Positions 3,205 through 7,797 of a DNA stretch of 45,976 bases are shown here, one piece after another; positions within the stretch are counted from its first letter, which is position 1, and the number at the start of each line of letters is the position of its first letter. This DNA comes from Candidatus Limnocylindria bacterium. GTDB taxonomy: Bacteria > Chloroflexota > Limnocylindria > P2-11E. The DNA is taken from NCBI GenBank assembly GCA_035513115.1, contig DATKCP010000180.1, forward strand, positions 1 to 45,976, read 5' to 3'. Both the position numbers and the translations under genes were made by a program. A model generated the notes under the pieces. It was not told the DNA's origin. It made no database searches and saw only the letters and a list, made by a program, of their open reading frames with translations.

Positions 3205-6200
3205 CTACCGGAACGCGACGATGAGGTGGACACCTGCTGTCGGCGTGCAGCCGCCGTTCACGGCGTGATCGAACGAGAGTGCGAGCGTATTCGCTGCCGA
3301 GACACGCGCGCCGGTCAACGGGCAGGTCGTGGCGTGTCCCGGTGGGTTGACGATCACCACATCGCCAACGGCGAGGCCCGTGACCGTGAAGGTCTGCTCG
3401 GAGGAGGTGTTCCCGCCGATCGCAGCGGGCGTGATGTCGGCGCTGTACGTCTTCACGAGCGTGTAGGCCGTGCCGCCGCTGCCGACCGTCACGCCGCCGG
3501 TCAGCGTGGACGCGCCGGTGACAGCCAGCGTGCTCGAGAGCGTGGTCGCGCCGGTGACGCCGAGCGTGCTGTTTAGCGTCGTCGCGCCGCTCACACCGAG
3601 CGTGCTCGAGAGCGTCGTCGCGCCCGTGACGCCGAGCGTGCTGCTCAGTGTCGTCGCGCCCGTGACGCCCAGGGTTCCCGCCACCGTCGCGTTGCCGAGG
3701 AGGGCCTGCGTCTGACCGCTACGGCCCAGGTTCAGGGTCGTCGCGGTCGTGCCGCCGATGCTGATCGCGTTCGCGCCGCCGGAGTCGATCGCGAAGGTCG
3801 CGGCGGCCGGGCCAGTCAACGTGCCACTTAGCGTGGTGTTCCCCGTGACACCGAGGGTGCTGCTCAGCGTGGTCGCACCGGTCACGCCGAAGGTTCCGGC
3901 GACAGAGGCGTTGCCGAGCAGCGCCTGGATCTGGCCGGCGCGGCCGATGTTGACGGTCGTGGCGTTCGTGCCGCCGATGTCGAGCGCCGACGCGTTGCCG
4001 TTGTCGATGGCGAACGCGCCGGCGGCCGGCCCGGTGATGCTCGCCCCGCTCACGGTCAGGGTTCCGCCCAGCGTCGTGTTGCCGGCCTGGTCGACCAGGA
4101 GGCGGTTCGCACCGTTCATCTGGAGCTGGATGAGATTGCCGCTGTAGGCGGCGGCGGTGTTCAGGTAGATGCCGGTGCCGGCCGTACCGAGCGTGACCGC
4201 GACCGCCCTGCCTGTGGTCAGCGAAGTCGCGCTCACGTTCAGCACCTGACCGGCCAGCTGCGTGCTCTGGAAGTTGGCGAGGTTCGCCGTCGCGCTACCC
4301 GCGCCGCTCGCCGAGACATTGAAGACGTTGCCGGTGAAGGACTGCGCGCGAACGTTCACCGCGCCGATCGTCCCCTGCGCGTCATTCGCGCCTGAGTACA
4401 GCGCGCCGAGCGAGACGTCGATCGCCTTGCCCGTGGTGAGGTTCTGCGCGCTGATGCCCAGCACCGTGCCGGCGGTCGTGCGGTCCGCGGTGAGCGCGAC
4501 CAGCGTGCCGCTGAAGTCGCCCGTGCTCTTGATCGTCGTCGCGCCGTTCAGCGAGTCCGTGGCGCCGCCGTAGAAGAACCCGCTGCCCGCGCCTGTCGTG
4601 AAGGCCGAGCTACCCGTGTTCACCGCGAGCGCCTGGCCGGTGCTCAGGCCGTTCCCGGTGTTGATCTGCGCCGCGGTCTGCGTCGTGAGCGTGTTGCTCG
4701 CGTCGCCGACCGCGACGGTGCTGCCGTTCGAGACGGTCGTGTTCGCGAGAGTCGTGTCGCCGGTGAACGTCTTATTGCCGGCGATGCTCTGGTTGCCCGA
4801 CGTCCGTACGACGGTTCCGTCGACGTCGATCGTGATCTTCCCGCCGCTGCTCGACGCCGCGAGACCCGCGCCGAAGTTGAGCGTCGTCTCGTTCGGCGTA
4901 ACGGCGACGCCGTCATCTTCGATCGCGTTCGTGCCAGCCGGACCCTGAGGACCGGTGTCACCAGTAGGACCCTGCGGCCCGGTGTCACCTGTCGCACCGG
5001 TGGCACCGGTGGGACCCTGCGCGCCGGGGTCGCCGGTCGGGCCGGCAGGACCGGTGTCGCCCGTTGCCCCAGCGGGACCCTGCGCGCCGGTGTCACCGGT
5101 CGCGCCGGTGGGACCCGCGGGACCTGTGTCGCCGATCGGACCCTGAGGACCCTGTGGACCGACGGGACCCTGAGGACCGGTGTCACCAGTAGGACCAGCG
5201 GGGCCGGTGTCGCCCGTTGCACCAGCGGGACCCTGCGCGCCGGTGTCACCGGTCGCGCCGGTGGGACCCGCGGGACCGGTGTCGCCGATCGGACCGGTAG
5301 CTCCAGCGGGACCCTGCGCGCCGGTGTCACCGGTCGCGCCGGTGGGACCCGCGGGGCCGGTGTCGCCGATCGGACCCTGAGGACCCTGTGGACCGACGGG
5401 ACCCTGAGGACCGGTGTCACCAGTAGGACCAGCCGGGCCGGTGTCGCCCGTTGCACCAGCGGGACCCTGCGCGCCGGTGTCGCCGGTCGCGCCGGTGGGA
5501 CCCGCGGGACCGGTGTCGCCGGTCGCGCCGTCAACACCGTCGACGCCATCGGCGCCGGCGGGACCCGCCGGACCAGCAGGTCCCTGCGCGCCCGCGGGGC
5601 CCGCCGGACCGGCGACGCCCTGGGGACCGGCAGCGCCAGCCGGACCAGCCGCGCCATCGATGCCGTCCGCTCCAGCAGCGCCTTGGGCACCGATCGCGCC
5701 GGCAGGACCCTGCGGTCCCTGCGCGCCGTCAGCGCCAATGGGGCCTGTTGGACCCTGTGGCCCCGGAGGGCCGGCGGGGCCGGGCGTTCCAGCGGGCCCG
5801 GGTGGACCTGCGTTGCCGGCGACGCTGGGCTCACCGCGGAAGAGCACGAAGATGTCGAAACCAGTGCTGGCCGGTGCGCTGGCGGTGACCGGCGTCGGAA
5901 GCGTGCGGACGACATCGTCGCTCAATACGGCGACCTCGGTCGTCGTGACGCGAATCCCGCCGAGCGCGACACCGTCGACGACAGTGCGCGTGTCTTCCAC
6001 CTGACCCACGACCGCGCCACTCGAGCTGTGCGCTTCGGCGAGCACGCTGACGGTCGTCTCGGTGAGACTGAGTGGCGAAACGACTGATGCGAAGCGATCA
6101 CCGGCGCTGTTCGGGATCGTCACGACGACGGTGGAGTCGCCGCGGCTCGCGGTGGAGCCAGGGATGTAGCGGATGAGTTCGCCATCGCTCACGCCAGCGG

Positions 6201-7797
6201 CGCGACCCGAGCGATCGACGATGACCGCGTCGCGCGAATCCTCGAGGACGAATGTCACGCTGTTCTGCGCGAACGCGCTCGCCTCCGAAGGCGCGCCGCC
6301 CTTCGATGTGACGAGCGTCATGTGGCCGGCCGTCACCGAGACGCTCGATTCGGCGGAACCCTCTACGCCGCGCACGTCCACGGCGCCCTCGGTTGTGCTG
6401 ACAGTCGTCAAGCCTGATGGATCGACCTGGATGGTGAATGCCGTCCCGGTCACCGACGCCGTCGCGGTCGGCGTGGTCACTGTGTATCGGTTGGATGACT
6501 GCGCACTGACGACGTGCCACGTGCTGCCTGAGGTCTGACGCAGCGTCGCGGCGATCGCACCGTTCGAACGGACGCGAAGCTCGACGATCTCGAACTCCGT
6601 TCCGGGCTCCAAAACGACGACCGTTTCGTCGAAGAACGTGAGTGCCGCGCTCGCGAGCGCACGCGTGCGCACACTGTCGCCTTGACGGATGACGCTGCCC
6701 GTTCCGGCCGGTGTGTATGCGCCGCTTCCGGTGCGCACATCCACGTTGCCCTGGAACACCGTGAGGTTCGCGCGCGCCTGCACGGCGCTCGCGGCGGGGC
6801 CAAGGATCACGGCGGACCCCGACAGGAACAGCAGCAGCGCCGCGAGCACCGCGGCGACGAGGAGGAGCGGACGGCGGGACTGCGCGCGCTGAACGGTGCG
6901 CTCGGTCTGTGAGATCGGCGCGATCTTCGGCGCCGCGCTGACGAAACCGCGCGCGATCGCGGCCGCGATCTCGCCGGCACTCGCGGTCACGACCGTGACC
7001 GGCACGTTTCCAAGAAGAGCGCTGACGTCGTTCGGGGTCTGATCGTCGAGCGGATCGGCCATGGCGAGGGTCGCTTCGCTGCGACCGAGCGCGACGAGCA
7101 CGACATGACGCTGGTCGCACAGGCGCTTCGGGAGCTGGCCGGCGACCGTCGGATCGATCGGGTCGTTGACCTTGCGCGGGCCGCGACCGATGCGGACACC
7201 GCTCTCGCGAGCGGCGAGCGAGATCAGAGCGCGACCGCTCACGCGGGACAACACCTGCGCCGCGCGAGCGTCCGGGACGAGTCCGGTCCGGATCAACGCG
7301 GCCGACAGACTCTCGCGCGCGCCGCGCGAAGCGGCCAGTCGTTCCATCTGCTCCTTCGTGAAGAGGTGCTCCGCGACAAGCGCATCGGCCAGGCTGCGTT
7401 CGATCGCGCTGAGCTCCGCCGGCTTCGCCTTGGCGCGCTGCAGCGCGACCTGGCGCAGGATGCGGAGCGTCTCCTGCGGTGCGGTGTCTTTTGAGATGTG
7501 CGCGACGGCGCCGACCGCGAGCGCGAGATCGCGGATCCCCGGGTCGAGGGTGAGGAAGACGATCGATGCGTCGGGCAGGAGGGGCCTCAGCTCGCGAGCG
7601 ACCTCGAGACCGGTCTTGCCCGGCATCGAGTTGTCGAGAAGGATCAGGTCCGGCTTGAGCTCCAGCGCCATACGGCTGGCCTGGACGCCATCGGCAGCTT
7701 CGCCAACGACGAGGAGCTCGTCGTCCGGCGCAAGCAGCGAGCGGATGCCCTCGCGGATCGCGAGGTGGTCGTCGGCGACGAGGACGCGTGTTGGCAT
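3205..7797 (-). CDS. 1530-aa multidomain protein: response-regulator receiver + GspE_N-like domain, one TM helix, FecR domain, collagen-like triple-helix region, tail-fibre-like repeats, small C-terminal domain
   Basis: aa 1-120: receiver motifs VLVADDH, DLILLD(55)NSMPG, IVFLT, HISKD. aa ~131-285: T2SS/T4P ATPase N-terminal-like ([19 protein letters not shown]..., [17 protein letters not shown]..., LAMADPLD). aa 309-333: the only hydrophobic helix ([22 protein letters not shown]). aa ~345-475: FecR-like ([21 protein letters not shown]). aa 661-957: (GXY)x99. aa 958-1433: T/G/A/N-rich repeats. The last ~97 aa contain 2 Cys. Confidence 0.9.
3499..3678 (-). repeat. five tandem 36-bp (12-aa) repeats [12 protein letters not shown] in the C-terminal fibre region
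   Basis: Protein aa 1374-1433: [60 protein letters not shown]. They sit inside a larger duplicated module (TGPAA.(A/T)FAID.G.A.A..IGGT.ATT.N.GR.GQ.QALLGNA.VAG) spanning about 3499-4038. Confidence 0.8.
4927..5817 (-). repeat. collagen-like (G-X-Y)x99 coding tract inside the 1530-aa gene
   Basis: Translation [31 protein letters not shown]...[12 protein letters not shown] has Gly at every third residue with no interruption. The plus-strand '[10 protein letters not shown]' ORFs are its mirror image. Confidence 0.9.
5030..5520 (-). repeat. near-identical long tandem repeats (about 234 bp / 78 aa period, built from 51-aa and 27-aa modules) within the collagen tract
   Basis: The protein module [51 protein letters not shown] occurs at aa 760, 838 and (partly) 889. 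DNA strings such as ggaccctgaggaccctgtggaccgacgggaccctgaggaccggtgtcaccagtaggaccagc recur around 5139 and 5373. Mirror ORFs start at 5180 and 5414, which gives the 234-bp offset. Confidence 0.75.

Follow-up and report, generated by a model that had tools for sequence, protein, structure and literature searches.

A response regulator is, as a rule, a soluble switch that acts through DNA binding, an enzyme, or a protein partner. The FecR-type relays known to us all serve Gram-negative iron uptake as anti-sigma factors, and we know of bacterial collagens only as passive adhesins or spacers. Here we examine a family of proteins that appears to unite a receiver (REC), a FecR core, and collagen in one polypeptide across the membrane, and that is conserved beside a kinase/regulator pair of its own and accessory genes. 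The representative followed here, which we call the fibre protein, is encoded on contig DATKCP010000180.1 (GenBank assembly GCA_035513115.1) of Candidatus Limnocylindria bacterium, an uncultured soil/freshwater Chloroflexota of the class Limnocylindria. The contig belongs to a short-read metagenome-assembled genome (MAG) and was analysed complete, over its 45,976 bp; this whole stretch is referred to as the window. In NCBI the fibre protein has an exact match, HUG06626.1 from the same bacterium, and its sole annotation is 'response regulator'.

The closest described systems are the sigma regulators FecR, PupR, and FoxR, with which the fibre protein shares a common plan: a cytoplasmic effector, one transmembrane (TM) helix with its N-terminus inside, and a FecR (CJM) beta-solenoid outside. 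E. coli FecR is inserted by the twin-arginine translocation (Tat) pathway via R79-R80, right before its TM helix, and self-cleaves between Gly181 and Thr182, after which the C-terminal fragment remains non-covalently bound; signal-dependent dissociation of this fragment is essential for the later cleavages, and in the authors' model TonB-dependent action on FecA brings it about (PMC12036975). Both features are paralleled in the fibre protein, by a twin arginine and by Gly451-Thr452. The differences lie at the two ends—where the sigma regulators have an anti-sigma domain, the fibre protein has a phospho-receiver, with no ECF (extracytoplasmic function) sigma factor nearby, and where they have an STN domain and a TonB-dependent transducer, the Chloroflexota protein has a beta module and a collagen fibre. 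No STN domain was matched in the fibre protein, in which the region past FecR consists of an orphan beta module and then collagen. Since it lacks the anti-sigma domain, a nearby ECF sigma factor, and STN, the fibre protein is not a member of the sigma-regulator family; by sequence comparison, what it shares with these regulators is the transmembrane core. FecR-domain proteins also occur in the periplasm as stand-alone partners of two-component or CHASE2 systems (PMC5192318, PMC9239204), which makes a fused receiver-FecR version a plausible evolutionary step.

We favour, with a rough probability of 45%, the reading that the fibre protein is a FecR-type transmembrane relay in which both ends have been swapped. 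On the inside, the anti-sigma domain would have been replaced by a NarL-family phospho-receiver, mostly accompanied by a degenerate MshEN-like module; on the outside, the FecR beta-solenoid would have been kept, and STN replaced by an orphan beta module, an ~85-nm collagen stalk, a beta-repeat shaft, and a disulfide-bonded knob. The ectodomain is expected to trimerise into a fibre at least ~100 nm long, projecting from the Chloroflexota cytoplasmic membrane. In the anatomy itself—a fibre on the cell surface that is one polypeptide with a two-component receiver, the two connected by a FecR-type core—we have good confidence. Each part is familiar; unfamiliar are the way in which they are combined and the link that this implies between a phosphorelay and a fibre outside the cell. 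A first-pass annotation, made from the DNA letters alone, knew of no characterised protein that joins a receiver to a collagen fibre across a membrane, and our literature searches agree: no description of a protein with receiver, FecR, and collagen was found in the full-text literature, searches on Limnocylindria/Chloroflexi collagen included, and the database record goes no further than the name quoted above.

The FecR-type core and the cytoplasmic domains

The assignment of the FecR domain draws on several kinds of comparison. Pfam places FecR at aa 374-473 (E 1.1e-8), and an AlphaFold2 model of aa 335-660, built with 27 aligned relatives, is all-beta, with a mean pLDDT (predicted local distance difference test score) of 88.6 and a pTM (predicted template modelling score) of 0.84. 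Foldseek matches the first half of this model to BDI_1681 (4M0N/4M0H), a FecR-family anti-sigma factor, and to the cell-surface-signalling domain of PupR (6OVK), with a probability of 1.00 and a root-mean-square deviation of 2.1-3.1 Å over ~137 residues; FecR-annotated viral proteins match the ectodomain model at E 1e-9. Searched as a single sequence against those of the PDB, the FecR domain gave nothing under E 0.3, and it took Pfam, Foldseek, and hhalign together to establish the link to FecR. For the last of these, the family profile was compared with FecR of E. coli K-12, which reads TRLTRRHVMKGLLLLL... and ...LTALG181-T182EFTV; the TM helices are aligned, and VTG451-T452AFTI stands opposite ALGTEFTV. 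This register agrees with what Pfam and Foldseek indicate independently. The motif G-T-x-F is invariant in 24-27 clade members and in 83 representatives of the wider family described below, and by its position and invariance Gly451-Thr452 is a candidate self-cleavage site. For comparison, the Gly-Thr pair of FoxR is termed non-conserved among sigma regulators in the PupR structure paper (PMC7186176). The first-pass annotation had called aa ~345-475 FecR-like, and the likeness proves closer than it claimed, with the FecR/PupR fold, the Gly-Thr pair, and the twin arginine all present beside the Pfam match.

The Kyte-Doolittle-19 profile has a sole peak above 1.6, at aa 307-339 (maximum 2.62), in line with the earlier observation that aa 309-333 is the only strongly hydrophobic span. 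The positive charges flanking this helix number 5 on the N-terminal side against 1 on the C-terminal side, which points to an N-in/C-out orientation. Cysteines occur only at positions 227, 1492, and 1517, and the sole ectodomain pair, Cys1492/Cys1517 in the terminal knob, fits an oxidising exterior and so agrees with an extracytoplasmic position of FecR, collagen, and fibre. These features support a type-II single-pass protein with the receiver and the MshEN-like module predicted in the cytoplasm, and the FecR domain, the collagen, and the remainder of the fibre predicted outside; a cytoplasmic collagen part, which the first-pass annotation had listed among the results that would count against it, is not what hydropathy and charge indicate. 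An arginine pair stands just before the TM helix in ~26/28 of the clade members that have one. In the wider family, the pair precedes the helix in 23/77 proteins and a stricter Tat-like pattern does so in 4/77, and Arg-rich pre-TM segments are common, so Tat export is kept as a lead only; by analogy with FecR, export of a folded, pre-cleaved ectodomain by Tat is a possibility.

Between the FecR domain and the collagen lies a middle module that is modelled confidently (pLDDT >90 for most of it). It always accompanies the FecR domain, including in a FecR paralogue encoded near the other end of the window. Pfam, NCBIfam, and PHROGs hold no match to the module, and a fold assignment for aa 480-640 was attempted and rejected, with no convincing match in PDB or BFVD (p53-like and DUF4425 beta-sandwich folds at E >0.03). 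The paralogy, proposed in the first pass from the FecR segment, holds at 33% identity over 286 aa (E 7e-27; BLASTP with fibre aa 333-608), and reaches past FecR into aa 480-608. Two further genes adjoin the paralogue: a tRNA gene (42227-42297, plus strand) abuts its 3' end, and just upstream on the same strand (43436-43921, minus) is the gene of a 161-aa protein whose two CxxC motifs are zinc-ribbon-like; this protein could be a cytoplasmic partner.

An exhaustive search retrieved 611 cluster representatives of the TM-FecR-middle family at E <= 1e-10, mostly from uncultured soil Chloroflexota. Among 83 representatives that were scanned for domains, all 83 carry FecR, 6 collagen, 4 REC, and 1 MshEN; the REC/collagen proteins are thus a small derived clade of this family.

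The REC domain (Pfam Response_reg, aa 5-112, E 3.6e-18) finds its closest NCBIfam and PDB matches in receivers of the NarL/VraR/DesR type. It has everything by which a two-component receiver is recognised—the CheY-like REC fold, the acidic pair, the phospho-acceptor Asp, the Thr/Ser, and the Lys—and the corresponding residues D9, D10, D55, T83, and K103 do not vary among 24 family members, which bears out the receiver hallmarks first read at aa 1-120. It is also the best-conserved domain: in the clade at 45-53% identity, the REC domain is 71% identical, against 47% for MshEN, 51% for FecR, and 38% for the middle module. As a separate observation, two proteins (P0057 and P0058) join REC and MshEN, 41% identical to the cytoplasmic part of the fibre protein, to GT2 glycosyltransferase domains; the REC-MshEN unit has therefore also been fused to polysaccharide synthases.

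Behind the receiver, Pfam recognises MshEN at aa 212-283 (E 1e-9). In a PDB profile search, positions 130-274 of the family profile align with the N-terminal domains of the PilB/PilF ATPases (E ~1e-13), and from this coverage the entire MshEN domain is taken to be present. Binding of cyclic di-GMP (c-di-GMP) by MshEN has been defined through two 24-residue motifs and a relaxed search pattern, the strict form being two tandem copies of RLGxx(L/V/I)(L/V/I)xxG(L/V/I)(L/V/I)xxxxLxxxLxxQ, and the pairing of REC with MshEN is among the architectures listed (Wang et al. 2016, PMC5013675). The fibre protein has in common with these c-di-GMP receptors its homology to the MshE/PilB N-terminal domain; however, both of its 24-residue motifs are degenerate, and it resembles the non-binding XpsE case of that study (PMC5013675). 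Neither the strict nor the relaxed motif is matched by any of 24 family members (0/24), in which position 1 is Ser/Thr/Ala instead of Arg and position 3 is Ala/Ser instead of Gly. The module is probably a degenerate, c-di-GMP non-binding one, to judge by these motifs, and c-di-GMP sensing was rejected as its default reading. MshEN is also missing from one sub-clade (P0042-P0048, the complete P0044 included), from which it follows that the core architecture is REC-TM-FecR-middle-collagen and that the MshEN-like module, with its motif lost, is accessory. Of the initial description of aa ~131-285 as GspE_N-like, then, the homology stands and the role needs this refinement.

The predicted extracellular fibre and the continuity of the gene

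The bacterial collagens Scl1/Scl2 (Streptococcus), BclA (Bacillus), and Lcl (Legionella) combine a long uninterrupted G-X-Y tract with a non-collagen globular end, and the fibre protein does the same, with Pro prominent at X and Thr/Gln/Ala at Y. Its tract (Pfam Collagen, E 1.1e-39) was found by regular expression as a single run of 99 triplets, 50 of them with Pro at X, and 36, 26, and 19 with Thr, Ala, and Gln, respectively, at Y; we estimate a length of ~85 nm if it is fully triple-helical (297 residues x 0.286 nm). The NCBIfam alignments to SclA, Lcl, and SclB reach 143-188 bits, far under the cut-offs of 325-500 bits, and are collagen-driven. Anchoring differs as well: the fibre protein has an N-terminal TM helix, where Scl has LPXTG (none is present in the fibre protein sequence) and BclA an exosporium-targeting sequence. 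The globular domains that mark these families, the C1q-like domain of BclA and the C-terminal domain of Lcl, are likewise not matched. In addition, Scl, BclA, and Lcl have no cytoplasmic signalling domain, whereas the fibre protein has one. The GPT repeats of BclA are O-glycosylated. O-glycosylation of the stalk is a possibility by analogy with BclA, in view of the frequent Thr at Y (36/99 triplets) and of glycosylation genes for YfhO-like GT-C, GT2, GT4, and methyltransferase proteins just downstream of the fibre cassette in two related loci (L007 4829-10852, L009 4887-8892).

The collagen is followed by a shaft, which contains the phage motif BppL_N (Pfam, aa 992-1016, E 4.3e-9), two ~73-aa repeats, and five 12-aa repeats, much as the first-pass description of aa 958-1433 as a T/G/A/N-rich repeat region had it. 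The shaft is 50-60% identical to many 'hypothetical' open reading frames (ORFs) that are collagen-preceded C-terminal parts of similar genes; in its remoter relatives, domains of the Peptidase_S74 or bactofilin type occur, and some of these proteins are labelled as beta-strand-repeat proteins. HylP tail fibres are triple-stranded beta-helices that come after a short collagen segment. The fold search with the shaft model gave significant matches to streptococcal phage HylP tail fibres and to nothing else; since the pLDDT of that model is 61, they are treated as a lead of low weight. The phage tail fibres (streptococcal HylP hyaluronidases and lactococcal BppL) share with the fibre protein a collagen followed by a T/G/N-rich beta shaft; in contrast, the fibre protein has a non-phage context, a membrane anchor, and signalling domains. 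The ~97-aa terminal domain first noticed for its two cysteines is confirmed as such (Cys1492 and Cys1517). This knob has no significant family in Pfam, NCBIfam, or PHROGs, and resembles the Cys-containing ends of three relatives (P0096, P0079, and P0044).

An artefact or a foreign gene must be weighed against such an unusual series of domains: the gene might be a chimera of a response-regulator/FecR gene and a phage collagen tail-fibre gene joined across a repeat, or a prophage tail fibre. What speaks for this is the short-read origin of the contig, the 153- and 234-nt near-identical repeats (90-97%) in the collagen DNA, the truncation of nearly all relatives at contig ends within the collagen, a gap at this place in a second assembly (L010, below), and the shaft with its BppL_N motif and its fold likeness to HylP. 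We nevertheless regard it as very improbable and largely excluded. The gene is one ORF of 1530 codons without internal stops, as first reported from the minus strand, and its product matches five Pfam families, all over curated cut-offs (Response_reg, MshEN, FecR, Collagen, and BppL_N). A search with aa 1-660 recovered ~55 proteins, from many samples and at 40-80% identity, with the order REC-(MshEN)-TM-FecR(-Collagen); most of them end at contig edges within the collagen. The passage from REC through FecR to collagen is on one ORF in P0003, P0005, P0007, P0023, P0024, and P0318, and in L006 and L007 contig-edge collagen triplets are followed by the shaft and then the downstream genes known from the window. 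One relative, P0044, is complete on six contigs as a 700-aa version with REC, TM helix, FecR, middle module, short collagen, and Cys-containing knob. Additionally, both halves of the gene are matched in a second MAG (locus L010), from a strain 98-99% identical, and L001 and L010 show synteny in the genes to either side. No phage genes lie nearby, and PHROGs gave no significant match. The fibre gene and its L010 counterpart differ at 21 synonymous and 9 nonsynonymous codons over 797 codons, from which we conclude that the gene is under purifying selection. Because relatives span REC to collagen and collagen to shaft, P0044 is complete, and L010 matches both halves, the fibre gene is real and single; the assembly chimera that the first pass had reckoned with is largely excluded.

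The repeat number is a different matter. The L010 sequence has a 200-N scaffold gap inside the collagen repeats, at window ~4998-5407, and its beta-repeat shaft is 291 nt (97 aa, in frame) longer (L010 5361-5740 against window 3503-3882), which reflects either a repeat-number polymorphism or an assembly collapse in one MAG. Consequently, L010 independently backs the continuity of the gene and both of its halves, yet neither exact repeat number. The uninterrupted tract at aa 661-957 claimed in the first pass stands in this assembly, and its count of 99 triplets holds for this assembly alone, L010 being gapped there. The features of the fibre gene and its neighbours are collected in Table 1.

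Table 1. Features of the fibre gene, its cassette, and related genes in the window.
Feature	Position	Strand	Description
Whole fibre gene	3205..7797	-	ATG-started, 1530 aa, GenBank HUG06626.1
REC domain	7462..7785	-	aa 5-112; phospho-acceptor D55 with D9, D10, T83, K103
MshEN/GspE_N-like domain	6949..7398	-	aa 134-283; helical N-subdomain 134-186, alpha/beta C-subdomain 212-283
Twin-arginine S307-R308-R309-P-L-L and single TM helix	6799..6879	-	TM helix about aa 310-333
FecR/CJM-type beta-solenoid	6364..6771	-	aa 343-478
Gly451-Thr452, candidate autoproteolytic bond	6442..6447	-	VTG/TAFTI, opposite FecR G181-T182
Middle all-beta module	5878..6360	-	aa ~480-640, then short linker to collagen
Collagen tract	4927..5817	-	aa 661-957, (G-X-Y)x99 in this assembly
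T/G/A/N-rich beta-strand-repeat shaft	3499..4926	-	aa 958-1433; BppL_N 992-1016
C-terminal knob	3208..3498	-	~97 aa, Cys1492/Cys1517 pair
d171	2677..3192	-	first of three tandem small single-TM paralogues, 12 nt downstream of fibre gene; N-terminal TM helix
Second small paralogue	2249..2608	-	~119 aa; GTG start inferred from L010 gene call; paralogy by tblastn
d311	1317..2252	-	third paralogue, with C-terminal extension; 4-nt overlaps with neighbours
TPR protein	733..1320	-	Pfam TPR; N-terminal signal/lipobox-like LVSC; last gene of apparent operon
u148	7977..8423	+	148 aa, tail-anchored, C-terminal TM aa 127-145; divergent from fibre gene
NarL/LuxR-type response regulator RR215 (REC+GerE)	8482..9129	+	Pfam REC E 1e-32, GerE E 1e-21
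FecR paralogue	42311..43390	-	short tail, TM helix, FecR (Gly-Thr kept), middle module; without REC or collagen; Pfam FecR E 1e-10

Putative two-component partners and neighbouring genes

The first-pass suggestion that the fibre is wired to two-component signalling is backed by gene order. A NarL-type response regulator adjoins the fibre gene in the window and in every related locus, and a GAF-HisKA_3 kinase, which has no TM segment, is adjacent in the distant loci L002-L005; in L009 the kinase/regulator pair lies ~7 kb downstream of the fibre cassette. Kinase, regulator, and fibre gene are tightly spaced in L002-L005, and the P0044 loci have the order u148 homologue, DivIVA-like gene, GAF-HisKA_3 kinase, NarL-type regulator, REC-TM-FecR-collagen gene, the last four co-directional. 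In the reading that we favour, the fibre receiver would be phosphorylated by the cytoplasmic GAF-HisKA_3 kinase, which would also serve the adjacent NarL-type regulator.

The small protein u148, which stands next to the NarL-type regulator, is conserved in L001 (82%), L002/L003 (43%), and L010 (100%), and its 90% cluster has 143 members. Its similarity to receivers is sub-threshold (Pfam REC E 0.11, NCBIfam NarL-type E ~0.01); the acidic pair DD is replaced by A-H (VVAHP), and the Asp, Ser/Thr, and Lys positions are seemingly kept. It is possibly a tail-anchored pseudo-receiver.

Receivers of the NarL/DesR/VraR class dimerise when phosphorylated, and on this basis the protein could instead work from the inside out: the cytoplasmic GAF-HisKA_3 kinase would phosphorylate D55, dimerisation of REC, with MshEN possibly helping, would change the clustering, stability, shedding, or localisation of the trimeric fibre, and the NarL-type paralogue would adjust transcription in parallel, so that the fibre is the output. 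A fully canonical receiver of this dimerising class, and one that is the most conserved part of the protein, speaks for this mechanism; moreover, a kinase that senses through GAF domains and lacks TM segments would report an intracellular cue, the genes for kinase, regulator, and fibre are co-directional and tightly spaced in L002-L005, and the DivIVA-like and tail-anchored receiver-like proteins of the cluster hint at membrane positioning. However, a conformational signal would be hard to pass along one helix to a ~100-nm fibre, and the retained FecR fold, the invariant Gly-Thr pair, and the twin arginine would go unexplained. We also know of no receiver that controls an extracellular structure via a single TM helix, which counts against this mechanism, and overall we rate it as rather unlikely.

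Less probable again is a purely structural adhesin or spacer whose tethered REC acts as a phosphate sink or checkpoint, competing with the NarL-type regulator so that fibre number feeds back on expression of the cassette while nothing is signalled across the membrane. One kinase clustered with two or three receiver-type proteins (the fibre REC, RR215, and the receiver-like u148) is the usual branched/sink layout, the fibre REC is 35% identical to the REC of RR215, and the MshEN-less sub-clade shows that the minimal unit is REC, membrane anchor, and ectodomain. A phosphate sink, however, has no need of fusion to a fibre, and the conserved FecR-type features would again be left without explanation.

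Downstream of the fibre gene lies a cassette that is also present in L001, L006, L007, L009, and L010, with gaps of 12 nt or 4-nt overlaps. Its first member, d171, has 832 homologues, all named hypothetical, from Chloroflexota and soil metagenomes. The three small paralogues (1317-3192) share the motif 'YQAVFL.NGQTYFG...DV.YL...RG.E...P...M.IP...VLF.E.L' and always stand directly after the fibre gene; neither they nor u148 have a significant family in Pfam, NCBIfam, or PHROGs. The TPR protein is conserved in L001, L006, and L010. No ECF sigma factor is found in the cassette.

Beyond the cassette, two candidates were considered for the surroundings and rejected: upstream riboswitch or RNA control, for which Rfam gives only the tRNA already mentioned (42227-42297), and a phage or prophage context, for which PHROGs gives only noise (E >0.003) among cellular neighbours with functions in metal homeostasis, Mrp/ParA, and polysaccharides. 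The metal-homeostasis genes include an ABC-3 Mn/Zn permease (12056-13000), with Fur, ZIP, and ZnuA in the syntenic L001 and L010, and a 634-aa CopC-CopD-YtkA/FixH fusion (18686-20590, plus) lies in the same neighbourhood. Elsewhere in the window are a 568-aa protein with an N-terminal NYN ribonuclease domain and ~400 residues without family match (25698-27404, plus), and a 491-aa fusion of a thioredoxin-reductase-like pyridine-nucleotide-disulfide oxidoreductase with a C-terminal cyclic-nucleotide-binding domain (28334-29809, minus). DUF5667 proteins occur both in the window (34153-34875, minus) and in L004 (14392-15058, ~9 kb downstream of a P0044-type fibre gene); their recurrence is probably coincidental.

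Direction of signalling and significance

The first pass had left the choice between inside-out control and outside-in sensing open, and the present evidence narrows it. Within the relay that we favour, the retained FecR fold, invariant Gly-Thr pair, and twin arginine lead us to favour outside-in signalling, as in FecR; this is the single most likely mechanism, although we put it tentatively and at less than even odds. The protein would self-cleave at Gly451-Thr452, leaving the fibre held non-covalently on a membrane stub; tension or binding at the distal knob would pull the C-terminal fragment off; the exposed stub would be degraded by site-1 and site-2 proteases; and the tethered receiver, freed or destroyed, would alter how the kinase shares phosphate with the NarL-type transcription factor. 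By analogy, a long fibre would be a natural deliverer of a pulling force like that on FecR.

Several points weigh against this relay, or at least against its direction. The hhalign probability of the family profile against FecR is 1.7% (E 0.03), a low value that we ascribe to the template being a single sequence. The Gly-Thr pair could be conserved for structural reasons only, and the FecR module may be a generic scaffold, since most of the wider family lacks REC and collagen. The monomer model of aa 958-1530 (573 aa) is poor, with a pLDDT of 61 and a pTM of 0.36. A histidine kinase was looked for in the ten largest ORFs left in the window, and in some of the smaller ones, and none was found, and no site-1/site-2 protease or Tat genes were seen in the cassette; both of the latter are usually encoded elsewhere. 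Cleavage, phosphorylation, trimerisation, and surface exposure are all predicted from sequence. Finally, a receiver normally takes its input from a kinase, and a cytoplasmic kinase acting on the receiver fits inside-out control at least as naturally.

A more specific version of outside-in signalling, which we consider doubtful, is a mechanosensor. The ~100-nm fibre would be joined to its membrane stub solely by the non-covalent junction at the cleaved Gly451/Thr452, and shear, attachment, or the pull of a grazer or phage would tear it off, with intramembrane proteolysis, release of a phosphorylatable REC-MshEN module to the cytoplasm, and a re-routed GAF-kinase/NarL phosphorelay as the consequences. 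If true, the system would respond as an AND gate that requires both a metabolic cue from inside the cell and a mechanical contact from outside. In eukaryotes, adhesion G protein-coupled receptors, Notch, and mucins with SEA domains carry an adhesive stalk on a membrane-proximal self-cleaving domain, and pulling on the non-covalent junction triggers signalling. The resemblance to these systems (GAIN, Notch, and SEA) is one of analogy and not of homology, and the cleavage of the fibre protein is a predicted one.

The predictions lend themselves to work with recombinant fragments, which could test self-cleavage at G451/T452, phosphotransfer from GAF-HisKA_3, the expected lack of c-di-GMP binding, and collagenase-sensitive trimers. 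The organism is uncultured and the mechanism a proposal; even so, specialists in two-component and cell-surface signalling would find the fibre protein surprising. The FecR transmembrane core emerges as a portable module, used well beyond ECF-sigma signalling in a family of 611 representatives. If the link between receiver and fibre is functional, either a fibre outside the cell joins the outputs of two-component signalling as one of a new kind, or bacteria gain a fibre-borne and possibly force-gated FecR fuse as an input device of a new kind.

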